Shown: piece after piece, positions 956-57,903 of the stretch
Numbering within the stretch: the first letter of the stretch is position 1
Layout of the letters: every line of letters starts with the position of its first letter
Source of the DNA: Cyanidioschyzon merolae
Taxonomy: Eukaryota
Direction: 5' to 3' (one strand)
Length of the DNA: 64,000 nt
Assembly (NCBI GenBank): GCA_000091205.1
Contig: AP006501.2
The notes under the pieces: generated by a model
What the model was told of the DNA's origin: nothing
Databases searched by the model: none
The model's input: the letters and a program-made list of their open reading frames with translations, nothing else
Made by a program: the position numbers and the translations under genes

Positions 956-3169
956 ATGGAACACGAAGCGAACTTGAACGATCTATCACTCGACGACAGG
1001 GGCAAACGAGAGCGTCCAGCACCTGAATCCGAAGCTCCACCCTACGTGAACCATCGGATCAGCTGCTGGGAACGTTTCCGCCAACACAAACAAGGCACAC
1101 TGCTGGGATCAAACGGCAGCAGCGACGAGATTTTGATCAAGCTACCCGATGGCACGAGTACTCGAGGCAAACGGTACGAGACCAGTCCCTGGGATGTGGC
1201 GCAGAGCCTGGGACGTGACCTTGCAGAGCGCTCGGTTGTGGCTCTGGTCGACGGGGAGCCCTGGGACATGAACCGACCGCTAGAGGCTGACTGCAGCGTC
1301 GACTTTCGCTCGTTCGATACTCCCGAGGGTCGAGCTGTGTTCTGGCATTCGACAGCGCACATGCTCGGAGAAGCGATGGAGTACAAATACCACGGTGAAC
1401 TATGCATAGGGCCTCCTGTTGAAGACGGTTTCTACTACGACATCTTTCTCGGTGAGCGAGCGATCACTCCGGAGGACCTCGCCGACCTGGAGCGAAGGAT
1501 TCAGCGCATCATGAAAGACAAGGGGCGTACCTTTGAACGCATGGAGCTCACCAAGAGTGAGGCGTTGGAAATGTTCGGCTACAATCGGTTCAAGTGCGAG
1601 CTCATCGAAAAACTGGGCGAAGGGGAAACAATCACTGCGTATCGCGATGGGCCTTTTATCGATCTATGCCGAGGGCCGCACGTCCCATCCTGCGGCCGTG
1701 TCAAGGCAGTGAAGCTCACCCGCCTCGGACAAGCGTACTGGCTGGGAAAGGCCCAAAACCCGTCGCTTCAACGAGTATACGGTATTTCTTTCCCCGACAA
1801 GCAGCAGCTGAAGGAATGGGAGCGACGGATAGAGGAGGCAGCCAAAAGAGACCACCGCAAAATCGGACGCGATCAGGAGCTGTTCTTTTTTCACCCGTAC
1901 AGCCCCGGAAGCTGTTTCTTTCTGCCACATGGGACACGCATCTACAATCGCTTGTTGGAATTTATGCGCCGCGAGTACTGGAATCGCGGCTATGAAGAGG
2001 TGCTTACCCCGACCGTCTTCGATTTTGCGCTGTGGGAGGCCAGCGGCCACGCGGCGAACTATCGCGAGAACATGTTCAGCTTCGAAGTCGAACAGAGAGC
2101 GTTCGGCCTCAAGCCCATGAATTGTCCTTCTCACTGTCTGATCTATGCGTCTCGTGTGCGATCGCATCGGGAGCTGCCGCTTCGCCTGGCCGACTTTGGT
2201 ATCCTGCATCGCAACGAACTGAGCGGAACCCTGACTGGTCTCACTCGTGTTCGCAAGTTCGAGCAGGACGATGCGCACATATTCTGTACGCCTGCACAGG
2301 TTGAATCAGAAGTTCTCGGTTTCCTGAAATTCCTCGAGCACGTCTACCAGATATTCGGCTTCAAATTTGAGCTCGAGCTCTCTACGCGACCAGAAAAATT
2401 CATGGGCGACCCAGCGCTCTGGGACCGAGCGGAGTCCATGCTTGCGCAGGCACTATGTCAGTTCACAGGCAAACAACGCGACGAACCTGGCGGCTGGCGC
2501 CTGAATCCCGGTGACGGTGCCTTCTATGGCCCCAAAATCGACATCAAACTCTTCGATGCGCTGCAGCGGCGACACCAGTGTGCTACCGTTCAACTGGATT
2601 TTCAGTTGCCAATTCGCTTTGATCTTCGTTACACGGCTGCGGGTGCCAGCACTGAGGACGGCAACGCGGCTGCAAGCGGACCGGTACTGGCACCAGTCGC
2701 GGAGCGCAGCCTCGACACCACCGATGCCACGCCCGAGGACGCCAAAGTCGTTCCCGCCTCGCACGACGTTCATCGGCCCGTGATGATTCACCGCGCGATT
2801 TTCGGCTCATTCGAGCGCTTCATCGCGATCATCACGGAGCACTATGGAGGAAAATGGCCGTTCTGGCTTTCACCGAGGCAGGTTGCTGTCCTGCCAGTGA
2901 GCGATCGATTTCTTCACTATGCGCAGCAGGTGCACCAGCGTATTCACGACGCAGGCTTCTTCGTGGACGTCGATAGCTCCGATCGCAAACTGGCGAAAAA
3001 GATTCGGGAAGCACAACTTGCCCAGTATAACTATATTCTTGTGGTCGGTGAAAAGGAGCAGGCCGACGGAACTGTGAATGTGAGAACACGGGACAATGAG
3101 GTTCACGGTGAGCGTACGATTGATCAAATCATTTCCGAGTTTCGCCAGTTGACAGAGCGATTCCAATAA
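956..3169 (+). CDS. Threonyl-tRNA synthetase (class II aaRS; TGS, editing, catalytic and anticodon-binding domains)
   Basis: Single 737-aa ORF. It has a TGS-like N-terminus (ILIKLPDGTS...), an HxxxH editing-domain motif (HSTAHMLGEAMEY), class II core motifs (RIYNRLLEF..., FGILHRNELSG, GAFYGPKIDI) and a C-terminal anticodon-binding region, with a low-complexity Ala/Asp-rich insertion. Confidence 0.9.
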   Translation: MEHEANLNDLSLDDRGKRERPAPESEAPPYVNHRISCWERFRQHKQGTLLGSNGSSDEILIKLPDGTSTRGKRYETSPWDVAQSLGRDLAERSVVALVDGEPWDMNRPLEADCSVDFRSFDTPEGRAVFWHSTAHMLGEAMEYKYHGELCIGPPVEDGFYYDIFLGERAITPEDLADLERRIQRIMKDKGRTFERMELTKSEALEMFGYNRFKCELIEKLGEGETITAYRDGPFIDLCRGPHVPSCGRVKAVKLTRLGQAYWLGKAQNPSLQRVYGISFPDKQQLKEWERRIEEAAKRDHRKIGRDQELFFFHPYSPGSCFFLPHGTRIYNRLLEFMRREYWNRGYEEVLTPTVFDFALWEASGHAANYRENMFSFEVEQRAFGLKPMNCPSHCLIYASRVRSHRELPLRLADFGILHRNELSGTLTGLTRVRKFEQDDAHIFCTPAQVESEVLGFLKFLEHVYQIFGFKFELELSTRPEKFMGDPALWDRAESMLAQALCQFTGKQRDEPGGWRLNPGDGAFYGPKIDIKLFDALQRRHQCATVQLDFQLPIRFDLRYTAAGASTEDGNAAASGPVLAPVAERSLDTTDATPEDAKVVPASHDVHRPVMIHRAIFGSFERFIAIITEHYGGKWPFWLSPRQVAVLPVSDRFLHYAQQVHQRIHDAGFFVDVDSSDRKLAKKIREAQLAQYNYILVVGEKEQADGTVNVRTRDNEVHGERTIDQIISEFRQLTERFQ

Positions 3170-3229
3170 AGCATTTCGAGTGTATCGCAACAGTACCCAT
3201 CCGCTGGACAGCGACGAACCGGCGTGCAT

Positions 3230-3850
3230 CGGATCTAGCGACTCGAGCCGGTCTCGTGCATTGACGCGTTTCGAGTACCTAGAGACGATAGCGTGTGTGT
3301 CTGTACACCGATTTGCAGACGCCCCCCCCCCCCCCCGGGTTTTGCTCTAAGGGCCCCATGCCATCGGCTTTAGTTTCTTCTCGTGCACCTCGAGCCGGAG
3401 AGGATGTCCAACAAAGCTTGATCGCCTCAGCTCCTCGGGTCTTGTGTTCAGCACCGCACTTCTCCGGATATGGATCGCAGCGTTGAAGTCTCGGTTCACG
3501 AACTCCATGCATGTATTGCCGCTGTGGTTGAATTCACCAATGCAAGGGTTGATAGGACTCGTTCCCTCTGTACCAGTACAGTCTCGTCATCTACCCGTCA
3601 GGCAAACATCTTTTCTGACATATCTCCCCTCTTCGTATGCTCATTCTTCCTGCTCTTCTTCGCTTCATAGTCGACGAGAAGAGGATATTTTTGAAGCATC
3701 CAGCGATGATGACGGCCCTGCGGGATCCCCGACTTGCAAGTCCATACCTTTTCCTTGGATTTTATTTGCACTTTAAATCAACGCACTTGGAATGCACCTG
3801 CTGTAACTCATGAAACCGCTTTTGATACCAGGCACCTGGATATGGAACAC
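3230..3850 (-). mobile_element. Short internally deleted Fanzor/TnpB-like derivative (copy A)
   Basis: The minus strand encodes ...EFVNRDFNAAIHIRRSAVLNTRPEEL..., a RuvC-III-like motif, at about 3480..3530, preceded by a conserved 5' segment at 3700..3850. That segment is homologous at nt level to 27050..27125 and 38330..38400. The short ORF is frameshifted, and there is a poly-C(13) tract near the 3' tail. Confidence 0.6.
3325..3337. repeat. Homopolymer C(13)
   Basis: A direct run of 13 C residues. Confidence 0.95.
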
Positions 3851-10492: not shown

Positions 10493-11011
10493 CTACTGAA
10501 CGGAACACCAGCCCCGCGAAAAATACGGTTTAACAACCTCCGCGGTCGTCGCCGGTTGCGCCACCGTGCCAGTGCTGGAGCCACTGGTTCGTGCTGCTGC
10601 TGCTGCTGCTGCTGCTGCTTCCTTGCTGTGGGGCAGCTTTGACCCCTTGTCCTTCTTCTTCGGTTTGGAGGCCCCGGCTCCGGTGCTCTTTGGTGCTTTC
10701 TGTGACTTGGGCTTTTTCTTCTCTATTTTGTCCGGACGACGCTGCGCCGTAGCTTTGCTTTTCCGCGACAACTTGGACTCCCGTTCTAGTTTCAACGGTA
10801 TGGGCTCCCGTTTCGCTGCGCGGGCGGCTGCGGCAGCCGCGGCGGCGGCACGAGCCGGTGTTCGTCGCGGTGTGGGTAGTGGCGCCTCAGCCGTCGTGGG
10901 GCCGGCGGGTGCCGCCCTCGAAGGCAGCGCCGCCGTTGCCGCTTTTTTGTGCGGAATTTTTTGAGATTTTTTCTCTTCAGACTTGGTGCTTGATTTCATT
11001 TTCACGGTCAT
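10493..11011 (-). CDS. Hypothetical Lys/Ala-rich low-complexity basic protein
   Basis: The ORF from ATG 11011 encodes KKKPKSQKAPKSTGAGASKPKKKDKGSKLP with poly-Ala stretches and has no globular domain. It starts directly after the minisatellite and the 3' end of Fanzor-like copy B. It could be element-associated or spurious. Confidence 0.25.
   Translation of the reverse strand: MTVKMKSSTKSEEKKSQKIPHKKAATAALPSRAAPAGPTTAEAPLPTPRRTPARAAAAAAAAARAAKREPIPLKLERESKLSRKSKATAQRRPDKIEKKKPKSQKAPKSTGAGASKPKKKDKGSKLPHSKEAAAAAAAAARTSGSSTGTVAQPATTAEVVKPYFSRGWCSVQ
10593..10619. repeat. (CTG)9 microsatellite
   Basis: Direct read of gctgctgctgctgctgctgctgctgct. Confidence 0.9.
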
Positions 11012-11039
11012 AGAGGGTTGAGAGGGCCTTTCGTTATAG

Positions 11040-11200
11040 AAGAACGCGAAAACGTGGACCAAGCGCGCGACGTAACGCATTCGTGCGTGCGCGCGCGAAT
11101 TCGTGCTTGTGCGCGCGCATTCGTGCGTGTGTGCGCGCTCTCGTGCGTGTGTGTGCGCGACGTAACGCATTCGTGCGTGTGTGCGCGCCTAGCGGCGACA
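11040..11200. repeat. Imperfect 22-bp minisatellite (about 6 units), alternating CG/TG
   Basis: GCATTCGTGCGTGTGTGCGCGC-like units repeated. It lies at the 3' end of copy B and is read through in frame as (AHTHE...)n. Confidence 0.8.
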
Positions 11201-12124
11201 TCTTTTTCATTGACAAAACGTCTCCAACTGACGTGCAGGCGCCTCCCAGTCTTTTCGGACCGGCCACCCACTACTGCTTCCAAATTCTTCTCATATAGTT
11301 CCACTTTGAGAGGTTGTCCAACAAAGTTCTCCCGTGTCAGCTCTGGAGGTCTATTCTCCAGCACAGGACATCTCCGTATATTGATAGCGGCGTTAAAGTC
11401 TCGATTCACAAACTCCATACGCTTCTTGCCGTCATTGGTTGTACTCACTAATGCAAGGAGTCCACGAACGTTCGCCCTCCTTTTCATTTGCTCCTCCGTC
11501 AGCGGTCCGTACTTTGCTATTTCCTCAGCGCTCCGCTGACACGTTTCCATCCCCACTCGCTGAAGTGTACATCCCAGTTCATGGTGTGTATACGATGTTC
11601 GAAACTCATCTATCGGTATCGTAACGAAACGCCGTGCACACTCCTTGTACGTTCTTGTCGTCGGAGCTGGCGTAGTTTTTTTTGGGTCTTCCAACACCCT
11701 GCCCTATACGCTACTGAGAGCCTCTGACTTTCATCCTCTATGAGGGCACTCAACTGATTGAAAAAGTTGGCAAACGCCCGCTGGTTACCACAATACAGAT
11801 TCATTCGCAAACGAGCCCATCTGGGCTTTGTATACTCCTCCGGCAGCGCATCCCAATGGGCAAAACGAACTTCCATGAATTTCCGGAAAGCTTCAAAGTC
11901 CGCTCCTCGGCTGGTCACCTCGCTCAAAGCTTCCAGGTGATCCTTCATTCCTGAATTCTACGTACAAATTTTCTTCCTCGCATTCATTATACCGGATTCT
12001 CGATTGTATCTCGCTCTCGAGAACCTCAAAAGGCGCATGTCTTTCTGACGTAAGTTGCCGTCAGTACCATCTTCCGCACGCTGCGGTGCTGCGATGGTGA
12101 TGATATTTGTGTTTCCGGGGTCAG

Positions 12125-12430
12125 CGCCAACGACAAAGTCGTTCTCATGCACTTTCTGCACCGCAGGACCCGCCTCCTTCTTTTCTTCATGCTTCGCCGC
12201 GTCAACCATAAAGTCGTTATTCTCCATCTCCTGCGCCGAAGGATCCGCCTTCTTCTCATCTTCATCCTTCGCCACGTCAACGACAAGGTCGTTATCCTCC
12301 ACCTCCTGCGTAGCAGGATGCTCCTCTTTGTTTTCTTCATCCTTCGTCACGTCAACGACAAACTCGGTATCCTCCACCTCCTGCATCACAGGATCCTCCT
12401 CTTTGTTTTCTTCATCCTTCGTGACGGGCG
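12125..12430. repeat. 96-bp tandem repeat (about 3.2 units) inside copy B coding region
   Basis: The unit tcttcatccttcgccacgtcaacgacaaggtcgttatcctccacctcctgc...ctcctctttgttttc is repeated. On the minus strand it encodes repeated [20 protein letters not shown] units ending in the RuvC-I motif [10 protein letters not shown]. Confidence 0.8.
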
Positions 12431-14559
12431 CGGCCGAGGGCGGGACTGGCCCATCTGTCTTCAACCGCCGGTGGTGTACACACATGGCTACCCCATCGAT
12501 TTCGATCAACCTAGTGAATACCTTTTGTTTTGCTCGAATTGAGAAGTTTGAAATCGAAGATATTCCCCCAGTACGTCTCACGGTTTTCACCGGGGAACTC
12601 TGTCTTCCTTACACCGAACTCCGGACTGATCTGCCTCATGATGCCGTGAAGGACTGCGGAGTCGATAGTCACAAAATGTGACTTGATGTTGCACAACGGA
12701 ACCACGTTGAAGCGCTTCCCCATTAGGGCAGCCCTCCGTCTCTACCACTCTTCATTTGTCTCTTCACTCAGCTTCATCTCTGCCTTGTGTTCGAGCTCTC
12801 GGTCGAGAAACACAAAATATCGCAGGAGGAGGCGATAGTATCTTTCCTTGTCTTTTTTTCAACTCTGATATCTTGTCTGTTGGATTCGCCAGCCCCAGTA
12901 CCGCACGATGCTCTTGTTTAGCCACACGGATTACAGAAGCTTCATTCGTGCTCTCGTTTGGCGCCTTCTTATCGACGAATTCGACCTCATCTTCATGCTT
13001 GCGATCGTCCGTGATGCCGTTGGTAATCGCCCGTACGCCTTTGCGATAGATGGCCCGGTACGGCGCACACACGGCGCGTATCATGAAACGTTCGAGGCTC
13101 ATCGTCAATTGGTTCTCCAGGTTCGTGAGGTACTTCATCGCCCCGTATGTGTAAATATTTCCGTCACCGCTGTATCGATTATCCTCGAAGCTGTAAAAGG
13201 GATGTTTTTCATGGAGGGCATCCACTAGCACATTTTCCTTCCGCGCTTCTGCTGTACCAAGCATCAGCTGTCGAATAAAGGTCTTGTCCAAGAAATCGTC
13301 CGGAATCTCGACCGTTTCAATATGCGCCACGTCTTCGTACATCTGCCTCGCCAAATGCATCACTCCTGACGACGCCTTGACAATGCTCTTGGAGTACTAG
13401 TCGACAAGTTTTTCGATAGCGTCTCGCAACTTTTCCGTGTACGGATTCTTGATATGTTTAAGAAGACCAGCTTTCACCACCATCTCGTCGTACAGTCGTC
13501 TTTCTTGCCGCCTTCGACGTAGGGCCTCCCGTTTTCGGTTCCTCTTCTCTTCTTTTTCTTCTGGACTCGGCACTGTTTTTTGTTTTTTTTCTAGCAGCCG
13601 GCGACCCTGGGCCTCCAGGATCGTGGACTTGCTTTTTCAAGACTTTCCTTTTCTAGTTTTTTTGGAAAAGAACGCTCCTTGAACCCTTCTGTTATACGCT
13701 ACGAAAAACACTTGACTAGACTTGTTTGAGGGTTGAAACACAAATGAACTGAAAACTTTATTTTTGTTCGAATCCTACGCGAATACAACTTTTACAGCTG
13801 AACATCACGCTAGAGATCAGGATCGCGTTTTCCTTCAACGGCGGCATGCGCATCCTGTCTCATGCTTGCCTGATCTCCCAGGAACGCTCATTTAGCGCAC
13901 TGCGTGCACCGCGCGAGACGCCTCACCGATCGATGAAGGACACGTGTCCGACACCCCGCCTTGGCACATGCGTGTTCGCATCGCGCTGGAGCGAAAATCA
14001 AGTGTCCTAGATCGTGAACTCACGTAGAACGATCTCTTGCTGTAGGCTCTGTCGCTGGTGCCGACGCTACTGCCCATCGCAGTACCGTCCTGACATACAA
14101 GGGGATGCAGGGGCCTGGTACGATACCCGTCGACGCGTCTATCAAACGCGTAGCGTTCTCTGCGGCTTACGCTTGTGCGGATGAGATATGCATCACTCTA
14201 CTCATTAGAAATTTCGTTACATTTATTGATCGTAAACAAACAAGGTACGGTAGTGTTCCCCAACACGGATACAAGTTTATTTCATTTGCTTGTTATACAT
14301 GCCGCACGGACGCTGGAATAAGGAACTAACCTGAATTTTGCTTCCACCCGGCGTCACGGGCTGGAACTGATGGCGCTTCAAGTCATTTCCATGCTGCTGT
14401 CGTTGTTCAACTTATGGTGCCTGCATCGTCCTCCGGATCCGGTGATCTTGGCCGAGGCATACCACACATATAGCGTCCAGATCTGCCACGACGTTTGAAC
14501 ATTGCATCTCGCCTGGCATGATCGACACGCTTGAGAAAAGCGCATACTGTATTCTGGTC

Positions 14560-15100
14560 TACTCTATCAGATTATATACAATTGCCTAACCCGTACATCG
14601 ACGACCGCAGACCAACAACAAACGCCTTCCAAAAGAAAAACGTTTTCGCCAGCCGTGTACAGTAGTGGCGCTCTGCGCGCCCCAGACGAAACGTCTCAAT
14701 CTACCAGTCCGCAGACGCCTCTCAGGCTTTGTTGAACGGCCGACTGGTATCGATCTCAGCTTCTCCTTGTACAATTCGAGACTGGGAGGCTGTCCCACAC
14801 CAAAGTTGACATGCCACAGCGCCACGGATCTCGTCTTCAGAACCGCACATCCCCTGATATTGCTAGCAGTGTTAAAGTCTCGGTTAACAAACACCATGCG
14901 TTTATTGCCTCTTCTTGAACTTGTCCATGCAAGGAGTCGTCGAAGTCATGCCCTCACTGCCATTTAGTGCTCTATCAGCTCTCCGTGCTTTTCTGTCGCC
15001 GAAGCGCCCCGCTGGCTCTTCTCTATCTCATTCTTCTGAAGTGTACACCCGGGCTCATCCCTTGATTTTTCAAAATGAAGAAACTTGTTTATATCTTTAA
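14560..15100 (-). mobile_element. Fanzor/TnpB-like 3' fragment (copy C)
   Basis: Minus-strand ORF 14586..14897 encodes MVFVNRDFNTASNIRGCAVLKTR...GQPPSLELYKEKLRSIPVGRSTKPERRL...ATTVHGWRKRF. The upstream antisense ORF 14915..15100 parallels 11439..11624 and 29152..29337 (zinc-finger region). The copy is 5'-truncated. Confidence 0.6.
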
Positions 15101-16009
15101 GTTGGAACCCTCCCGGAGGGATAAGCACTTGCGGGGAAAACATGACATGAGCCCCGTAATGTCACCGTGTGCTGAACGTTTCAGCGATTCGCCCCGCAGA
15201 CAAAGGACTGCTTTGCGGTACCTCTACAGACGTTGAATGCACGAGTGCGTGCATGCTTTGCATCGCCCCACGTCGCCCTAGAACCAGACCCCAGTTCAAG
15301 GCTCCCGACAGCGGCAGCGAACGGAACACTAGCCTGCTCAATCCTTGAACAGTTCGCATGCTTTGTTCTGCAAATGTTCAGGTTGAATCGCACGCGAGAA
15401 AAGCAGACCTCATTGGGTCCCAGGGTAGCCTGTGGTTGTCACCGATTTTGCAGATGATCGGACTGATCACGCACGAAGCGCAGCGGCACGGTGCGCATCA
15501 TGATCCATGGTGCGATACACCTCGCCATCATGTCGTCGGTCCGCATCGAACGACTCTGAACGAGTCTAGATGCTTGCTAGCGTTTCTTGCGTACAGCTGC
15601 CGACAGGACGAGTCATCGTGTTTCCCGCGCGTGCATGGCTAGACCTGCGTAGCGGTGCCTCTATCAAAGATGGTATCAGAACGGCGTAAGAGCGCACGAT
15701 TGTTCTCAGGCGCTAGACCGGAGTCCAAGTACGATGCGTTGCTGCGGCCTTCAGACATGTGCAGTCCTGAACCGTCATCGTAACGTCTACGAAAGCATCT
15801 CAAACGACCGAATCATGTTTGGTAGTCCATGCTTTGGCATCGCCTTCGACAATATGCTTCGTTTCTAGGTTCTAGGTACGCGCTGCATTACGCACAGCTG
15901 CATCCGCTTCTGCTGCGAAAACATGCAGTGCCGTGAACGCGTCGCGGTGCACCGCAACCTGCGTCCCGTGCCTCATCCAACAGATCCTGTGTTTCCTCGT
16001 GCTCATCAC

Positions 16010-24323: not shown

Positions 24324-26591
24324 TCACACGAACCCACGCAGCGACAAGAAACACAGGGCGGTGAGCGCGGCGGATACCGGAACGGTAACAAACCAACTAA
24401 GGAGAATGTTCAGCAGGACACGGCGATTCACGGAGCCACGACCCGTCGCCAGTCCCATCGCCACAATGGATCCAATGAGCGTGTGTGTTGTCGACACGGG
24501 CATGCCGATCTGCGTGGCCATGAGCACCGTCAACGCTGTGGATAGCTCGACACAAAAGCCTCTCGTCGGTACAAGGTGCGTGATCTTCTTGCCTACAGTG
24601 TCCATCACGGGACGTCCCCAGACGCCGAGTCCGAACGAGATTCCGAGTCCTCCAAGAACCAGCGCCCACGGCGGTACCAGTACTTCACCGGAGACCGCAG
24701 CGCTGCCGCCACTGCGATACACCGCTAAGATGCTCGCAAAGGGACCGATGGCATTCGAGACATCATTGGACCCGTGGCTGAAACTCACAAAACACGCCGT
24801 AAGCAGCTGAAGAATCGAGAACACCTGTTCAATAATGTCATGCTGACGCTTCCGAGCATACGTTGTCAGACTCAAAGACGTTGACGACATCACGATATCC
24901 ATGGTCGTTGGCACGTATTCACAGGTTGGCAAGAGCTGGATATCCTCACTCCAGTGCGCTCCTGACGAATACTCATCTTCATTTGTGCTCTCCTCGTTCG
25001 CTTGAAGCGCACCGAATGCGGCTAGCGCGACTGCGGCGGCCTCACTGGCGTCAATTTTACGCCCATTGCCGCGAATATTCTCCCGTGGGATGCTTCTCCG
25101 CACAAACTGTTTGCTGTGGATGAAGCTCGTCAGAGCGCCGGAAACTCCAGCCCCCAGCGCAGCCACACCGAAGGAGCTCGCAACAGCCTGAAACAATGTC
25201 CATCCTGTCGAATGCTCACTCTCCAGTTGCAAGAATAGAGTCAGGATGAAGAGCATCGAGCCGCACAACGTCGGCAGCCAGCGACGCATCGCTCGAGTCG
25301 GACGCGGCGCATCGATGATCGTTTGCCGGATGAACCGGAATAGCAGCCATGCCACAACGCCGCCCATCAACGGCGAAATGATCCAGCTCAGAACGATACG
25401 TAGAACTGCTTCCCACTGGATTTTCCAGCCAGAAATCATGCCGAGGCCAATAAGTGAGCCCACAACCGAGTGTGTCGATGACACTGGCAAGCCGTAGCGA
25501 GTAGCTAGACCCAGCCACATGGTGCATCCCACTAACACACAGAGCATTCCCAACATGTAGAGAGATGGCGAAGTTGCAACAGCACCAGATATGGACACTA
25601 CTCCTGTAGATATGGTCTTGGTGACTGTCGAACCAAATAGGACAGCACCAGCGAACTCGCAAACAGCGCCTATGGCAAGCGCCTTGCCAATAGATACCGC
25701 CCCGGTTCCTACTGATGTGCCAAGGGCATTGGCCACGTCATTTGCTCCAAGCGCTGCAGAGAGTAAGAACGCTATGCAAAGCGATAAGCAAACAAGCACA
25801 AAAGGCGACAAAATGTGACCGGATAGAGTACCGGCAGCTGCACTGGCAGCATCCGCCACAAGCGAGGCGTTTAAACGGAAACCACGCTGCGTCGTCTGCC
25901 GCGGTGCGGTCCAGCGAGCACGTTCCCGCAACGACTCTCGCACTCGCAGCCATGTCGGTGACAATTGAGCTGCTCTGATACCATAATTTCTACAAGAAAA
26001 GCACGAAATGGAAGAACGATGAGCGCGAGTCGACCCCGAAAGCTCGCTCCTAACTGCAAGGCGACCAGGATGCACAGGCAAACAAAGCGCCCTCTGAGCT
26101 GGTCCACTGACCACGTATGCCAGGTGAGGCGGTCGCCCGCCGCATTTACCCGGTCTCATGGACACCTGTAAGCGCCTATAGTTACCGCAAACGTCACGAA
26201 TCGCGCCTAGGCCCCTTTGGTGACACACAGCCAAACGCTTGTCCTTTTGCACGGAGCACGCACGAGACACGCATGTATGCACGCAAGCACTGCACGCACG
26301 CACGCACGCACGCACTGCGCGCAGGACGCTCGTACCACTGCCTGACGCTTTGGGTGGCGCTCGATTCGCGCGCGATGAGGCACCCATCGTTCCATCTACT
26401 TCCAAGTTCCATAACCCATACTTCTTCTCGGATATTCTTGTTGCTTCACGTCTTGTTTTGTGCAGCGAGTGCTTGCAGTGAGCTCCCACGATAGCACCTA
26501 TATCATCGGTGCGGTCGTTGCACAGAAGCAGGACGGGTTTGTCGTACCACAGATGGCGTCGGCACGAGCGGGTAGACTGATACCCACGCAC
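24324..26591 (-). CDS. PiT-family (PHO4) sodium/phosphate symporter; N-terminal boundary uncertain
   Basis: Both PiT signature repeats are present (GANDVANALGTSVG and GSNDVSNAIGPFA), with multiple TM segments. The first roughly 190 aa of the ORF are not transporter-like, so the true start or an intron is unresolved. Confidence 0.8.
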   Translation of the reverse strand: MRGYQSTRSCRRHLWYDKPVLLLCNDRTDDIGAIVGAHCKHSLHKTRREATRISEKKYGLWNLEVDGTMGASSRANRAPPKASGSGTSVLRAVRACVRACSACVHTCVSRACSVQKDKRLAVCHQRGLGAIRDVCGNYRRLQVSMRPGKCGGRPPHLAYVVSGPAQRALCLPVHPGRLAVRSELSGSTRAHRSSISCFSCRNYGIRAAQLSPTWLRVRESLRERARWTAPRQTTQRGFRLNASLVADAASAAAGTLSGHILSPFVLVCLSLCIAFLLSAALGANDVANALGTSVGTGAVSIGKALAIGAVCEFAGAVLFGSTVTKTISTGVVSISGAVATSPSLYMLGMLCVLVGCTMWLGLATRYGLPVSSTHSVVGSLIGLGMISGWKIQWEAVLRIVLSWIISPLMGGVVAWLLFRFIRQTIIDAPRPTRAMRRWLPTLCGSMLFILTLFLQLESEHSTGWTLFQAVASSFGVAALGAGVSGALTSFIHSKQFVRRSIPRENIRGNGRKIDASEAAAVALAAFGALQANEESTNEDEYSSGAHWSEDIQLLPTCEYVPTTMDIVMSSTSLSLTTYARKRQHDIIEQVFSILQLLTACFVSFSHGSNDVSNAIGPFASILAVYRSGGSAAVSGEVLVPPWALVLGGLGISFGLGVWGRPVMDTVGKKITHLVPTRGFCVELSTALTVLMATQIGMPVSTTHTLIGSIVAMGLATGRGSVNRRVLLNILLSWFVTVPVSAALTALCFLSLRGFV
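26292..26316. repeat. (GCAC)6 microsatellite
   Basis: Direct read of gcacgcacgcacgcacgcacgcac. Confidence 0.9.
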
Positions 26592-27125
26592 AGGCGCCTC
26601 GCAGTGTTTTTTGACCGGCCCTCTGCTATCGGTAGTAATGCTTGTCCGTGCACGTTTCGAGTCTGAGAGTCTGTCCCATTAAGTAAGATGGCCTAATTTC
26701 GTCAGCACTCGTCTTCATCCCCACACATCGTCTGATATTCATGGCGGTGGTGACGTCTCGGTTCACGAACGCTATTCGTGCATTGACACTGATTGAACGC
26801 ACCAATGCAATGATTGCTAGAACTCGCGTACCCAGCGCCACTGACGCCTTGTTGTCGCCCCATTCTACAAATACCTTTTCTCGTGTCTTGCCCTTCTTCT
26901 ACTTTTCATCGTCATTTGCGCTTCTTCGGTCTATTGTCGGTGGGAAGAGGCTTTTTTCGTTTTCTTCCTGCAACCGGCGATGGTGGCCCTCCTGGATCCC
27001 CGACTACCATGTGCGTACGTTTTCCTTGGATTTTTTTTGTTTCATCAAATGAAGACACTTCGAATGCATCCGCTATACACCGCGAAAAAGCATTTGATGA
27101 CATACACATTGACCTGGAACTCCAT
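26570..27125 (-). mobile_element. Short internally deleted Fanzor/TnpB-like derivative (copy D)
   Basis: Minus-strand ORF 26912..27109 encodes the 5' region MCMSSNAFSRCIADAFEVSSFDE...GDPGGPPSPVAGRKRKKPLP (NLS-like). Downstream ORF 26626..26841 encodes FVNRDVTTAMNIRRC...QTLRLETCTDKH (RuvC-III + tail). Both are homologous to copies A, B and F, and the middle of the gene is missing. Confidence 0.6.
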
Positions 27126-28833: not shown

Positions 28834-28838
28834 AGAGT

Positions 28839-29640
28839 TTGCAAATCGGTTGCGTCTTCCAGCAACGACACCGCCAGGCCTGTGTCTGGAATCAATTTTG
28901 GGGCAGGGAGTGCGCACATCAGGCTGGCCGCGTCCACCCGCCACACCTGGACCCGTGCCGCGGTATGCGAAAGAATCTGGACTGTGGGAGGCAGCGTGCA
29001 TTCGTCAACTTTTTCAATCAGTTGAGCGCCTTGAAGGAGGATCAAAGTCAGAGGCTCGTAGTAGCGTACGGAGCAGGGCGCTGGAAGACCCATAAAGGGA
29101 CGAGGCCAGCTCCAACGACAAGAATGTATGAGGCGTGCACACGGCGTTTCGTTACGATACCGATAGATGAGTTCCGAATATCCTATACACACCATGAACT
29201 GGGATGCACACTTCAGAGGGTCGAGATGGAAACGTGCCAACGGAGCCCTGAGGATATAAAAAAGCACGGACCGCTGACGGAAGAGCAAATGGAAAGGAGG
29301 GCGAAAGTTCGTGGACAACTTGCACTAGTGAGTACAACCTATGATAGTAAGAAACGTATGGAGTTCGTGAATCGTGACTTTAATCCTGCTATCAATATAA
29401 GGAAATGTGCGGTGCTGGAGACGAGACCTCCAGAGTAGACAAGACAGAATTTTACTGGACAACCTCTCAAGATTGAACCATATGAGAAAAAGTTTGAAGC
29501 AGTAGTGAGTGGCCGGTCGAAAAAGGCCGGGAAGCGTCTGTACGTCAGTTGGAGCCTTCTCGTCCAGGGCGGGTTTTTCGCCACTACTGTATACCGCTGG
29601 CGACGTTCGACTTTAGAACGGCGTTTACTTTTGGTGAAAT
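28839..29640 (+). mobile_element. Fanzor/TnpB-like 3' half (copy E), single frame through RuvC-II..RuvC-III
   Basis: ORF 28839..29438 encodes ...NFFNQLSALKEDQSQRLVVAYGAGRWKTHKG...RMYEACTRRFVTIPIDEFRISYTHHELGCTLQRVEMETCQR...KKRMEFVNRDFNPAINIRKCAVLETRPPE. After a stop the tail continues ([34 protein letters not shown]...[10 protein letters not shown]). It fills the divergent intergenic region between the MDR gene and NDUFS8. Confidence 0.65.
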
Positions 29641-30379
29641 GAACCGCTTTACACGCTCTCTTCTTCAGAGTGTCTACGCTATACCGCAAACCGGCTTGTC
29701 GAGGTGCTGTTTTGGGAGCTGGTCGTCGCGAGCTGTGCTGGACGCTGGCCAACGCGTCAGTGCGAGTCTGCTGGGCACCAGGCAGGAGCTCCGTCTAACG
29801 CAACAGCGGGAGCAGCGCGTTCTCCGGCACTCGTTCTCGACGCAATTGAACCCTGGTGGAACAGAGCGCGCGCAGCGGTCGCTCGAGTCCCTTCTGGATC
29901 GCCCAGCGCAAGTGCTGTTCCTGACGGAGCTCTGGAGAGGCCTTGGGAACCTGCTCGACATATTCTTCGACCCAAAAGCGATGTACACCATCAACTATCC
30001 CCAGGAAAAAACTCCTGTCTCACCGAGGTTTCGGGGTGAGCACGCCTTGCGACGTTACCCAACTGGCGAGGAGCGCTGCATCGCCTGCAGTCTGTGCTCC
30101 GCGGCGTGTCCGGCACTGGCGATCACCATCGAGGCAGAGCCCCGACCAGACGGCTCCCGGCGAACAACGCGCTACGATATTGACGGCTCCAAGTGCATTT
30201 ACTGTGGGTTATGTCAGGAAGCGTGCCCCGTCGACGCAATTGTGGAGTCCCCTACGCTCGAGAGCGCCGTAGAAACCCACGAGGAGCTGCTCTGGAACAA
30301 GGAGAAGCTTCTCTCAAACGGCGATCGATGGGAGCCCGAGCTCGCCCGAGCTATCGAGGCAGATGCCCCGTATCGCTGA
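29639..30379 (+). CDS. NDUFS8: NADH:ubiquinone oxidoreductase 23-kDa subunit TYKY (NDUFS8/NuoI homolog), nuclear-encoded with presequence
   Basis: The C-terminal 150 aa are close to identical in pattern to TYKY: two 4Fe-4S motifs ([12 protein letters not shown] and [12 protein letters not shown]), [33 protein letters not shown] and [16 protein letters not shown]. The N-terminus is R/S-rich. Confidence 0.9.
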
Positions 30380-37001: not shown

Positions 37002-37808
37002 ATGGGTCAGTGTGTAAGTGGCGCTTACAATCATGAAGACGACAGCTTCGTATCCATGAGGCAGCTCCTGGAGCGATACGGGAAGTATCTCTACGAGGCA
37101 CGGCCGGATCCCACTATTCAGGATATTGTGTTGTTCTGCAAAGTTTGTAAAGTTCTACCCAGTTTGAGAATAATCTTTGAAATCCCCGTAAGCACTGGGA
37201 GAGACGTTTGGACACAAGAGACATCAAAGTCGTTTTCTGGAAGGCCACGACGAAGACGTGCACTGGCAGATGAGGAAACCGAGGTATGGATAGATGAAAA
37301 CGAGCACGTCGAGACTTGTACCCGGCCCGGAGGAAAAAGCGCACGACTCTCCTTCGATTCGAACCACGCAAACAACACACCGTTGTTCCGTCGCGTGCGG
37401 GCAGAGCTTCGTGGTCTCTGCTTCGAGGCGCGTACAAGCTGGGTGGCCACGCAGATGCATCACGTCCTGACGCAATTGCTTCCTTCTCAGATGATGGCAC
37501 AGCTATGGATCTCAGCATACAAATTAGATGGATCTGTGGTTGCGGACGTTCTCAGGCTCGAAGACCGATTGCATATAAACAGAACGCTGCTCGTTACTGG
37601 TTGGGGATGCCTGCACCCCAGTATGCGAAAAGAACGAATTCTGGAGGAGCTCGAAGGATATGCGAGGCGGCATCGATGCGGAATCTGGGCGTTCCCGAAA
37701 GAGACGAAATCGTTCAACAGCACGCCCCGCAAGCACGTCCCCAGATCACGTTGTCGATCCCTAGCAGAAAGTCAGCATCGAGCACATTTATACGCATGTG
37801 AGCAATAA
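37002..37808 (+). CDS. Hypothetical protein with N-myristoylation-type start (MGQCVS)
   Basis: 268-aa ORF. The N-terminal MGxxxS motif is seen directly. The C-terminal GIWAFPKE weakly resembles the SNase-like C-terminus (GLWA). Confidence 0.35.
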   Translation: MGQCVSGAYNHEDDSFVSMRQLLERYGKYLYEARPDPTIQDIVLFCKVCKVLPSLRIIFEIPVSTGRDVWTQETSKSFSGRPRRRRALADEETEVWIDENEHVETCTRPGGKSARLSFDSNHANNTPLFRRVRAELRGLCFEARTSWVATQMHHVLTQLLPSQMMAQLWISAYKLDGSVVADVLRLEDRLHINRTLLVTGWGCLHPSMRKERILEELEGYARRHRCGIWAFPKETKSFNSTPRKHVPRSRCRSLAESQHRAHLYACEQ

Positions 37809-37849
37809 AACGAGAATCGTTCTACAACTATGCAGGGTAAACATATATG

Positions 37850-38405
37850 TATCCATTCACAGACATCTCCCAGCCTATTTTGAACAAGCGCATGCTACCG
37901 GTTTCAGTGTTTATCCATGCAGATTTCGAGCCTGAGAGGCTGCTCCACAAAGTGAGATCGCGTCAGCACCTCGGATCTCGTCGTCAGCATCGCATATCGT
38001 TTGATATTGATTGCGGAATTGAAGTCTCGGGCCACGACCTTCATGCGTTTATCACCTTTGCTGGAACCCATCCATCCTACGATTCCTGTAACTCACACCC
38101 TCTGTGCCACTACAGTCTCGTCATCGCCCCATCGATCAGATATCTTTTCTCATCTATCTCCGTTTGGTTCTTCTTCCTCTTGTTCTTCGTTATTTGCACC
38201 TCTATGTTCGACGTTTGGCGCCAAGATGTATTTTCAGGTTTTTTCCCGGGAAACCGGCGATGATGACCCTCCTGGATCCCTGACTACCATGTCCATGTCT
38301 TTTGCTTGGATTTTTTACTTGCTCAAATGAACGCACTTCGAATGCATCAGCTACAAACCGCGAAAAAGCATTTGATGACATGCACCTGGATGTGGAATGC
38401 ATTTG
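37850..38405 (-). mobile_element. Short internally deleted Fanzor/TnpB-like derivative (copy F)
   Basis: Minus-strand ORF 38202..38402 encodes MHSTSRCMSSNAFSRFVADAFEVRSFEQVKNP.... Further down, the minus strand encodes ARDFNSAINIKRYAMLTTRSEVLTRSHFVEQPLRLEICMDKH (RuvC-III + tail). It is close to copy D and lies directly 5' of ALG14. Confidence 0.6.
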
Positions 38406-45300: not shown

Positions 45301-45379
45301 GTTTTCTGTCGTGTAACGTAACGATCGCTCCACCGTGCGGATCGCTGAAATGTTCAGCCCACGGTGACACCAGGGCGAA

Positions 45380-45872
45380 TGTCGTCTCTATTTCGCAAGT
45401 CCAGTTTGCGCCGGAAGGGTTCTCTCCTAACGGCATGAACCAATGCGTTCATTTCCAAGAAATAAGGAATGAGCTGGGCTGTATACTCCAAAATGTCGAG
45501 ATGGAGGGAAGGTAGCCGACCGCTGCGGCGATAGAAAACCATGGAGAGCTGATAGAGCACCAAATGGCCCAGAGGGCGCGAATTCGCGGACTGCTTACAT
45601 TGACGAATTCAAGAACAGACAATAAACGCATGGAACTCTTGAACCGAGACTTTCAAGGCGCTATCAATATCAGACGATGTGCGGTGTTGAAGACAAGACC
45701 CGAGGATCTGACGCAATCCATTTTCTTGCGGGGCCAGCCTTTCAGGGTCGAAGTGTACAAGGAGAAGCTGAGACCGATCGCAGAGGGTCGGTCAAGAAAG
45801 GCTCGAAGGCGTGTCCAGGTGGGTAGCTATGTTTACCCTCCATGGCTGGGAAGCTTTTTTTTGTTGCAGTGA
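45380..45872 (+). mobile_element. Fanzor/TnpB-like 3' fragment (copy G)
   Basis: Encodes ...NELGCILQNVEMEGR... (zinc-finger region), then MAQRARIRGLLTLTNSRTDNKRMELLNRDFQGAINIRRCAVLKTRPEDL...GQPFRVEVYKEKLRPIAEGRSRKARRR. Confidence 0.6.
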
Positions 45873-45899
45873 ACGTCTTCTGTAGAACGCCAAGAAACG

Positions 45900-46087
45900 T
45901 CGCTCCGACACAAAGCGATCTAATACTACGCACGTACTCGAAGGGTGCTGATCGCAAGCAAAGCGTGGATCGCTACTCCCGTCTGTGCATGAAATGTGTA
46001 CGCGGTATCCGGAAGGCGCAAGACAGGAACTTTAACGCTGCCGTGAACGTCCTTCGATTGCTTGCAATCGATCTAAAGCGAACGTAA
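45900..46087 (+). mobile_element. Fragment of the second TnpB-like family (RYSRLCMKCVRGIRKAQDRNFNAAVNVLRL)
   Basis: Homologous to 17065..17436 (-). It directly abuts Fanzor-like copy G. Confidence 0.5.
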
Positions 46088-56121: not shown

Positions 56122-56305
56122 TTTTTTTCATTGACAAAACGTGTGCATAGGCCAGTGCTCTCCGATTATGCGCATTTTTCTTTTCTTTCTCTTTTATTTT
56201 GTGTTTAACTTCAGTGCGCGGTAATGTATCTATAAAGCCCCCTACCTCCAAGTTACATTACCTATGCTGATTCTCGGATATTCTGGTCGTTTCATACTTC
56301 CTATC
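56122..56305. repeat. About 180-bp dispersed repeat R, copy 2
   Basis: TTTTTTTCATTGACAAAACGTGTGCATAGGCCAG...TCTCCGATTATGCGCATTTTTCTTTTCTT...CAGTGCGCGGT...TTCTCGGATATTCTGGTCGTTTC is shared with 7067..7245. Confidence 0.6.
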
Positions 56306-57903
56306 GTGTGTGCCTAGAGCCTGCCTTTCCGCATCCGCCGTTGCGCTTGAACCGCTGGAGCAGATAGTTCATAGAGCTAGAACAGCTTTTCTATACCCCA
56401 GAGGGCGTCGGCTCGAGGGGTGCTTCACCCGACGTAGAATCGGGTCTCGTCGTCAGTTTGTGCTCGGACAGTCTGCGGATGCAAGCTCGCCTTCGCGGCA
56501 CGACACGCTGGAGAAACTTGGCTGTTAGGATAAATCCTGGGAGTCGCCTCTCTCCTTCGTGATCATGCATGGAATGCGTTGTTGTCGGTTGGCAATGCGG
56601 GTTTGTGCTTGACGCTCACCACAGTGGATAGGCGCAGAAAGCATACTAAACCCGTGTGCGCATCCGATTCGCTGGACCTTGCGCCTAGAAGGTAGCATGT
56701 GAGTTTATTCGCCACGAATGAGCGCTGAGGCTCGGTTAGCGGACCACCAGTTGCCAGTGCTGCACTCAGAGTGAGTGTCCGGCCTTCGACTATCACGGTG
56801 ATATCCAGCTGATGCCGTCCTTCAAGGAGCTCGCTGCGCTCCTGCTTCCAGCGCGGGCACTGTAACAGTAAATATGTCAGCGTCTCGGGGTTATCGTCTC
56901 CACAGCAGGGACATTGTGATTCTCAGTGCAATCCCAGTGTTCCTATACGGCTTAGAGTCGGTGCTGCTAGCCAGAAGCCACCAACGCGGATTTTGGCGCG
57001 CCACTGGCTACCGCGCGCAAGTCCCGGGAGCTCCAGCGCCTCCCACCAGTACTTGCATGTGTATGCCGGGTTCTAGTTCCGGTATGGAGTCAAGACGGGC
57101 GTTACTGGCGCGACTGGTTCCGTGTCTACGTTCCCATATTGCTTTCTGGACGGTTCGCTTGAGGCGGCGGGAGCCTTCTACATTTCCGGGAAACGATTGG
57201 AGAGCGTGTCTTCGCCTACGGAGAGATCAGATTGCGCGCACGCTCATCGCCGCTGATTGAAATTGGCCCGTTCGCGCGTCATGACCCGTATCGTTGACAC
57301 GCGGGTCATTCTGAAGCGCGCATCGCGCCTGCGCCCGCGCCGCAGCGGCCGCAGTGCTACGTGTCCACGTATCGAGCGATCCGCATGCGTGCGGTAAACG
57401 GATCAGCACGTGCGTTCGTTCGTGCGTGACAGGGCATCGAGCGAAAACGGATCCCCGCTGAGGCCAGTAACGTCGATGCCTGAAGCAACATGTCAATGAG
57501 CCTGGTCCGTCGATGACGTTTCGTCGGAGGTGTTGGCCTCCCCAGAACGTCGTTGTATGCTCATGTACGGGTTGATATTGGGTTAGGTTTAGGTTCGAGG
57601 TCAAGTCAACTGTGCCTGTTATCTGGTTCGCCATTGACGTGTGGCTCGGTATCGCTGAGCGGTACCCAGCGCTGTGGGCCACTGTGTGCATATAGTTGAG
57701 GTGCACTTTGGGGTCCTCGAGGTTCGGTGGAAGTTGCCTGTTTGCAACTTGTTACTTGCACACAACGATTACGCACCGTTTCGAAGGCGAAACGCCCTCG
57801 TAGCGCCACAGCGAGTACGCGCTTGTAGAACAAGTTCACGGAAAGCGTCTGCAGCCGAGTCGTCTGGTGCCTGTGCGCAGTCGGCTCCGAGTCAGAGCCA
57901 CCG

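Follow-up and report, generated by a model that had tools for sequence, protein, structure and literature searches.

A non-coding block at the right end of a CMe-1A-type Fanzor1 element as a candidate omegaRNA scaffold

Two decayed Fanzor-like gene remnants (copies C and E) in a 64,000-nucleotide stretch of Cyanidioschyzon merolae DNA, the whole of which is referred to here as the window, share a block of nucleotides downstream of their coding tail. Judged by its sequence, this block, ~75 bases long and non-coding, forms the right end of a Fanzor1 transposon family of red algae. It is attributed to a CMe-1A-type element and most likely encodes the scaffold of a guide omegaRNA, a reading to which we assign a probability of roughly 0.65. 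The reasons for this reading are that the associated protein is assigned to Fanzor1, that the block appears to be non-coding, that it stops at an abrupt boundary, that its predicted fold is confined to the sense strand, and that its layout resembles that of SpuFz1 (PMC10432273).

Fanzor-derived sequence recurs throughout the window: a tblastn search of the 64 kb with ORF pieces of the most complete copy (B) as queries detected seven Fanzor-like C-terminal remnants, A to G:

3338-3523 (-): copy A, found by tblastn
11008-13573 (-): copy B by tblastn; near-full-length Fanzor1 unit, 11008..13878
14586-15056 (-): copy C by tblastn; remnant 14613..15192, from the RuvC-II/III region to the right end
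26656-26823 (-): copy D, found by tblastn
28965-29567 (+): copy E by tblastn; remnant 28965..29633 (669 nt), full 3' block present
37922-38119 (-): copy F, found by tblastn
45468-45824 (+): copy G by tblastn; remnant 45337..45835 (tblastn, blastn)

B is the only near-full-length Fanzor1 unit in the window, and the remaining six copies consist of the 3' part of the gene alone. These 3'-anchored fragments (6/7 window copies, ~190-670 nt) keep the RuvC-III region and the tail and miss the 5' part, which suggests either 5' truncation during insertion or copying that began at the right end. In the case of C, blastn similarity to G reaches 15192, and similarity to other copies extends down to 14611. 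C and E had been described as otherwise frameshifted; on translation, both prove to be pseudogenes with in-frame stops and 5' truncation, i.e., dead relics without an intact nuclease adjoining. Copy B carries the motifs GADPG (RuvC-I), DEFRTS (RuvC-II) and NRDFNAAINI (RuvC-III), and its decay comprises one in-frame stop and several frameshifts. The coding tail that the sequence-only reading had reported for B, C, E and G is present in all four, with the exact motif in B (which reads GQPLKVELYEKNLEAVVGGRSEKTGRRLHVSW) and E, and a looser version in C and G (GQPPSLELYKEKLRSIPVGRSTKPERRLRTGR and GQPFRVEVYKEKLRPIAEGRSRKARRRVQVGS). When all seven 3' ends are aligned, conservation holds in each copy up to the codons ...GRRLHVSW; past these codons, C and E have a common block, F and G have another short tail, and B diverges.

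Repeat tracts were noticed within the remnants. In copy B, an acidic tandem repeat (unit 75 nt, 25 aa; 3.9 copies; 12128-12421, -) lies within the ORF immediately before RuvC-I (FVVGADPG); its units end in a sequence resembling the strand that precedes the catalytic Asp, and its copy number varies between homologues (e.g., P0001, P0002, P0004). Inside remnant A, downstream of the threonyl-tRNA synthetase (ThrRS) gene, a poly-C tract (~3322-3336) ranges from 5 to 15 C across near-identical metagenome samples. The ThrRS-adjacent insertion is also present in other metagenome samples, and the window sequence itself was found on a JGI metagenome contig. The genes of the window are densely packed, single long ORFs, and its ThrRS, which shares 80% identity with the enzyme of Cyanidiococcus yangmingshanensis and 62% with the Porphyridium one, places the host among the Cyanidiophyceae red algae.

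By sequence, the protein family is Fanzor1, because the family profile matches solved Fanzor1 chains. The profile comprises 18 members, taken from 1152 relatives that were retrieved by an exhaustive HMMER search, many of them full-length (600-700 aa) at ~40% identity. Its matches among solved structures are 9cf0 from Parasitella (E 5.6e-20), 8gkh, which is SpuFz1 of Spizellomyces (4.4e-15), and 9cer from Guillardia (3e-4). A profile of distant relatives was required for this assignment: a single sequence searched against the sequences of solved structures gave noise only, and Pfam returned nothing convincing for the window ORFs and their close homologues. In the 18-member alignment, D197 and E369 of the RuvC triad are invariant and D438 is nearly so. 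The segment between RuvC-II and RuvC-III (window 11400-11560, -; family alignment) reads TSYTHHELGCTLQRVEMEKCQ and is devoid of the usual CxxC pairs of the TNB; Pfam Cas12f1-like_TNB gives a weak match in only 1/18 relatives. With the CxxC pairs missing, zinc binding, if any, would therefore need His and Cys in an unusual arrangement. Distant Fanzor1 relatives terminate close to the canonical stop site of this family, and the few near-intact ORFs elsewhere, in metagenome loci, encode 778 aa (L009) and 772 aa (L077).

The central observation of the sequence-only reading, that C and E keep a nucleotide block after the coding tail, proved correct. The 16-mer core CGCCACTACTGTACAC occurs without mismatch in C (14655-14670, -) and with one mismatch in E (29579-29594, +); the only other match in the window has three mismatches, the chance expectation at <=3 mismatches being 0.3 matches. 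A covariance model of the 3' region, built on 42 copies, likewise identifies C (14613-14746, 85 bits) and E (29506-29633, 128 bits) as the only window copies with the full block. In B, the match is partial (11165-11270) and extends only up to the first hairpin, H1, and in D, F and G only the coding part is matched. A contig scan added 80 hot-spring metagenome loci, derived from a handful of samples, nearly all of which show the same sequence after the coding tail, GGAGACGUUUCGUCUAGGGCGCGGUUGCCGCCACUACUGUACACGCCCGACGUCGUUCGACUUUCGAACGGCGUU; together with the window, they yield 86 matches to the model, 63 of them distinct. No solo blocks apart from Fanzor tails were found in the window or the metagenome loci, and scans of the window for Rfam families and tRNAs returned nothing. 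Among more divergent copies, P0118 and P0040 have truncated blocks, and a 44%-identical relative offers too little 3' flank. The block contains two short hairpins (H1, H2), an invariant CCACUACUGUACAC stretch and a terminal hairpin (H3) of 10-12 bp, and in C and E its features and flanks are located as follows:

14684..14696 (-): H1 of C, AGACG-UUU-CGUCU, overlapping the last codons
14667..14681 (-): H2 of C, GGCGC-GCAGA-GCGCC
14655..14670 (-): near-invariant motif of C, CGCCACUACUGUACAC, predicted to be locally single-stranded
14621..14644 (-): terminal hairpin H3 of C, AACGUUUUUC-UUUU-GGAAGGCGUU, 10 bp with 3 G-U pairs; last conserved feature
14601..14620 (-): flank 3' of the right end of C, TGTTGTTGGTCTGCGGTCGT; its first 0-11 nt may be element
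29551..29625 (+): 3' block of E, with H1 at 29551-29565, H2 at 29568-29582, the motif at 29579-29594 and H3 at 29599-29625
29626..29645 (+): flank 3' of the right end of E, TACTTTTGGTGAAATGAACC, running into the Fer4 start codon at 29639

In most copies, the block begins at the canonical stop. Of 34 non-redundant copies, 18-19 have a TAG or TAA stop at one fixed site, which falls inside the 3' arm of the first hairpin; in C, this codon is mutated to TGG (14682-14684). Because the ORF ends at the same stop in these copies, the remaining ~60 nt of the block are, by sequence, non-coding in the ancestral state. Identity to the consensus is 0.83 in the block versus 0.88 in the adjoining coding DNA, and for C alone 0.73 versus 0.68. 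The block is thus conserved no better than the coding DNA next to it, so that shared descent of transposon copies suffices as a cause; its conservation proves membership in a repeated unit, not selection on the block. The proposal that the block is a candidate omegaRNA scaffold therefore stands as the best explanation, but the argument from conservation on which it had been built is weak, since any part of a transposon shows such conservation.

The other window copies end differently. A (3100-3340, -), D (26330-26620, -), F (37600-37900, -) and G (45800-46080, +) have a different tail after the coding end, in which a GGGUA-N-UACCC hairpin precedes a conserved stretch resembling YCYAUAGUUGUGAA and, after that, a T-rich run with TTGCAG at its end. 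This second tail type could be another scaffold type or a short GT..AG intron; few copies of it are available. B has lost the block after H1 and carries instead a 20-nt tandem repeat (CGCATTCGTGCGTGTGCGCG, ~3.8 copies, 11063-11187, -), a replacement that is also seen in five metagenome counterparts of B (L001-L005, 96-99% identical).

According to structure prediction, the block folds stably on the sense strand only. For a 128-nt region that starts in the coding tail, both strands of the 34 non-redundant copies were folded and compared to shuffles: the sense strand has a mean energy of -49.5 kcal/mol and a mean z of -2.19 (z < -2 in 18/34), versus -37.6 kcal/mol and -0.93 (z < -2 in 4/34) for the antisense strand. 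Copy C follows this pattern (sense -51.5 kcal/mol, z -2.82; antisense -31.4 kcal/mol, z -0.15), and the sense fold of E is no better than shuffles (z 0.10). Extending the fold by 130 nt of upstream coding sequence was uninformative. H1 is 81% paired across copies and has the variants GGACA..UGUCC and AAAAUU..AAGUUU, and the GGCG/CGCC stem of H2 (family form GGCG-N7-CGCC) is 93-95% paired. H3 reaches at least 8 bp in 32/34 non-redundant copies, with a mean of 1.9 G-U pairs and energies of -10.9 kcal/mol on the sense versus -6.5 kcal/mol on the antisense strand. It exists in two versions, 1a (GACGUCGUUCGA-CUU-UCGAACGGCGUU) and 1b (AACGUUUUUC-UUUU-GAAAGRCGUU), between which one pair changes from G-C to U-A and other pairs from C-G to U-G. 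A further compensated variant converts UUCGA/UCGAA to UUCUA/UAGAA; E carries the half-changed form UUCGA/UAGAA, and its H3 stem contains one G-A mismatch.

In most copies, although not in C, the motif CCACUACUG is complementary to CAGUAGUGG in the coding tail, ~85 nt upstream. The resulting long-range stem, for which two registers were tried, is 91% paired with zero compensatory changes, and in a hypothetical model it would close a multi-branched domain. The sequence-only reading had looked to compensatory base changes and a predicted structure as a check. The predicted structure was obtained; the covariation result depends on the alignment. On unbiased MAFFT alignments, no measure of covariation exceeded column shuffles, among copies of a young family that are ~20% diverged and mostly decaying, which leaves low power; the proposed pairs are 83-85% paired in these alignments, compared with 30-57% when the partners are slid. 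RNAalifold found almost nothing on the MAFFT alignment (-0.39 kcal/mol), partly because the two versions of H3 sit out of register. On a model-fitted alignment, which is biased towards the structure, 17/21 pairs have changes on both sides and 0/500 shuffles reach the observed values.

The block ends abruptly. Per-column pairwise identity drops from ~0.8 to ~0.3 right after GGCGUU, similarity between copies reaches background 0-11 nt past the terminal hairpin, and the flank holds at most 0.46 bit of information per position and ~0 beyond +11. Its first 11 nt carry a weak signal rich in T and G (TGGTG; one subgroup has TGTTTCCAGGGG), and the true element end may therefore lie a few bases beyond the hairpin. 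In one metagenome locus (L033, 629-800), the distal block, from CCGCCACTACTG to the terminal hairpin, is tandemly duplicated straight after GGCGTTT, an arrangement that is consistent with an element ending at this sequence. If the block is an omegaRNA scaffold, the candidate guides would be located at ~14601-14620 (-) in C and ~29626-29645 (+) in E.

The left end is more heterogeneous. A shared core starts near 13878 and opens with a hairpin of its own (GCGCKSUC..GAGCGC or GCGCG..CGCGC), and upstream of it there are at least three classes of sequence: a ~720-nt module, a ~700-bp repeat that also occurs alone, and unique DNA. The ~720-nt module (13879-14596, -) separates the left-end core of B from the right end of C, with C ~21 nt upstream of it. 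Full Fanzor units in at least six other loci (L014, L016, L020, L036, L037, L056) have the module upstream as well, at ~79-87% identity, and in L014 it again follows a C-like right end; the order of C-like tail, module and full unit is found in other loci at ~80% identity. The arrangement has the appearance of a head-to-tail composite or of an alternative 5' module. The ~700-bp repeat (Y-repeat; L008 1062-1760 and many other loci) is frequently found directly next to the left-end core, but it occurs by itself too, and in either orientation; the window contains a weak fragment of it (56243-56443, 67% identity). Mapping of the element/flank junction, which had been proposed as a route to the guide-adjacent region and a target-adjacent motif (TAM), was successful for the right end, to within ~10 nt; the alignment of left ends across copies, in which the 5' edge of the ~700-bp repeat is fuzzy, fixed no left end and yielded no TAM. 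Terminal inverted repeats were not found in these elements, and no transposase gene was seen inside or beside them.

The surroundings of copy E bear on the history of the insertions. E sits between an ADH-like gene and a Fer4 (NDUFS8-like) gene, its right end 5-13 nt ahead of the Fer4 start codon, and this intergenic region (28834-29638) measures 805 nt in the window versus ~245 nt in Cyanidiococcus and another relative. Both relatives keep the syntenic gene order (Fer4, ADH, PHO4, RNase III, LETM1, Sua5, MAT1; L089-L092), and the 20-kb syntenic stretch of Cyanidiococcus yangmingshanensis (GCA_013995675.1) and of the other relative contains no Fanzor-derived sequence. Several of the window remnants lie among these syntenic genes, and the comparison points to a lineage-specific expansion. 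A search for the empty site gave no base-level junction, the orthologous intergenic DNA of the two relatives being too diverged.

Elements of this kind have been described before. CMe-1A of Cyanidioschyzon merolae is a ~3-kb element with ~150 copies at ~80% identity to the consensus, without inverted repeats and with target-site duplications that could not be determined; its 5' 635 bp equal a separate repeat, TE-N2_CMe (Bao and Jurka, 2013; PMC3627910). The window elements share with it the occurrence in Cyanidiophyceae, the length of ~3 kb, the many ~80% identical copies, the lack of inverted repeats and of determinable target-site duplications, and a 5' module of ~635-700 bp that doubles as a separate repeat, TE-N2_CMe there and the Y-repeat here. 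They belong to a CMe-1A-type family, matched by description rather than against the CMe-1A consensus, and the ~700-bp repeat is probably TE-N2_CMe. The 2013 description predates the discovery of omegaRNA and makes no mention of the 3' block (PMC3627910).

[quoted passage not shown] Other Fanzor RNAs extend further upstream: the omegaRNA of GtFz1 overlaps 17 codons (PMC10432273), and conservation of fRNAs reaches into the coding region, with which co-folding has been proposed (PMC10530073). Fz1 omegaRNAs have 2-4 stem-loops ahead of the guide (PMC11423790). SpuFz1 and the family described here have in common a Fanzor1 protein, a scaffold with few stem-loops, a variable flank beyond it, and a similar identity between copies (~82% in SpuFz1). 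However, in Spu-1 inverted repeats of 30 nt are clearly present and a conserved CA precedes the left end, unlike in the elements of the window, and the SpuFz1 RNA has no sequence similarity to the block. Moreover, expression, binding and cleavage have been shown for SpuFz1, whereas the present block is a candidate identified from sequence and predicted structure. A comparable arrangement is found in the omegaRNA (reRNA) of TnpB in IS200/IS605 elements such as ISDra2, where the scaffold overlaps both the nuclease gene, at its 3' end, and the right end of the transposon; a subterminal end hairpin, the lack of inverted repeats and target-site duplications, and strand-specific structure are shared as well. 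IS200/IS605 elements are prokaryotic, however, and are accompanied by the HUH transposase TnpA, of which none was seen here; moreover, the protein matches structures of Fanzor1 rather than of TnpB, and no Rfam family was matched. With Fanzor1 in Cyanidioschyzon known since 2013 and the 3' omegaRNA of Fanzor loci since 2023, the element family is not new, and an omegaRNA at the 3' end of a Fanzor locus is expected and will not surprise specialists. In the literature searched, no paper was found that links an omegaRNA with a Fanzor1 of Cyanidiophyceae.

If the block acts as an omegaRNA scaffold, the element would be transcribed in the sense of the ORF, and the RNA, as far as sequence and predicted structure indicate, would span the last ~30 codons up to the element end. 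In its predicted fold, CAGUAGUGG may pair with CCACUACUG in a long-range stem around H1 and H2, after which come a linker and the terminal hairpin H3 (10-12 bp). By analogy with SpuFz1, GtFz1 and TnpB, the transcript would continue for ~15-20 nt into the flank, and this extension would serve as the guide that directs Fanzor1 to cut a matching site beside a TAM. The same DNA, H3 especially, probably also acts in cis as the right end of the transposon. The most that copies C and E could do is provide RNA in trans for one of the few near-intact copies located elsewhere in the genome.

Part of the evidence would also fit a block that is solely a DNA-level right end, recognised by the transposition machinery, with no guide RNA made. 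The family has neither terminal inverted repeats nor detectable target-site duplications (PMC3627910), the left-end core also opens with a hairpin, and HUH single-strand transposons typically have subterminal hairpins at both ends; the block is conserved to the same degree as the rest of the element, and strand-specific G-T pairs would also suit a single-stranded DNA intermediate. G-T mismatches, however, lend a DNA hairpin much less stability than G-U pairs lend an RNA hairpin, a transposase gene was found neither within the elements nor beside them, and every OMEGA, TnpB or Fanzor system tested so far takes its guide RNA from exactly this region (PMC10432273, PMC10530073). An exclusively DNA-level role is therefore considered unlikely, and the roles of guide RNA and transposon end are in any case not mutually exclusive. 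The position directly after the stop codon, on the sense strand and with a stable hairpin at the end, could also be that of a plain 3' UTR, or of a signal for 3'-end processing, in the Fanzor mRNA, without any guide function. This is very unlikely: there is no need for a 3' UTR to stop precisely where the element does, a poly(A)-type signal was not found, the architecture fits known Fz1 omegaRNAs, and a UTR would account neither for the conserved motif of 14 single-stranded nt nor for the complementarity that reaches into the coding sequence.

A role of the block in the protein is barely credible. The frame is open across the block past the canonical stop site in most copies, 9 of the 34 non-redundant copies have no in-frame stop at all within the region examined, and the resulting longer C-terminus (...VQGAVAATTVHARRRSTFERR) is part of some predicted proteins (P0001, L077), as expected for a coding extension reached by read-through of the stop. 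Yet the stop is the majority state and occurs as both TAG and TAA at one site, which implies that it is maintained, indels in the block are not limited to multiples of three, the read-through copies are decayed, and distant Fanzor1 relatives end near the canonical stop. That the block is neutral element sequence, with hairpins that are leftovers or products of chance, is highly improbable, although its conservation is the same as that of decaying coding DNA and covariation is not significant in unbiased alignments. The family-wide z-scores on the sense strand are hard to reach by chance, and chance is also an unlikely source of an H3 of 10-12 bp in 32/34 copies and in two compensated versions, and of a near-invariant 14-nt motif.

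The preferred reading, an omegaRNA scaffold at the right end of the element, raises the more interesting question of how a family without a recognisable transposase moves. The lack of inverted repeats, target-site duplications and a transposase, the hairpins at both ends and the strand-specific pairing lead to the speculative suggestion that Fanzor1 units may spread without a conventional transposase, either by copying from the right end through omegaRNA-guided breaks and gene conversion, or by a single-strand, rolling-circle-like mechanism. The prevalence of 3'-anchored copies (6/7) and the position of one full unit ~20-27 nt downstream of the right end of another copy are further grounds for this suggestion, which we nevertheless regard as distinctly improbable. 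Now that the right end is placed within ~10 nt and a candidate position for the guide has been proposed, empty sites and TAMs become searchable in the genomes of Cyanidioschyzon and Cyanidiococcus. Thermoacidophilic red algae live at ~40-56 C and low pH. If confirmed, the block would provide the guide-RNA scaffold for a Fanzor1 family of these algae, and a eukaryotic RNA-guided nuclease that is adapted to heat and acid and has a short scaffold (~75-130 nt) would then be of practical interest.
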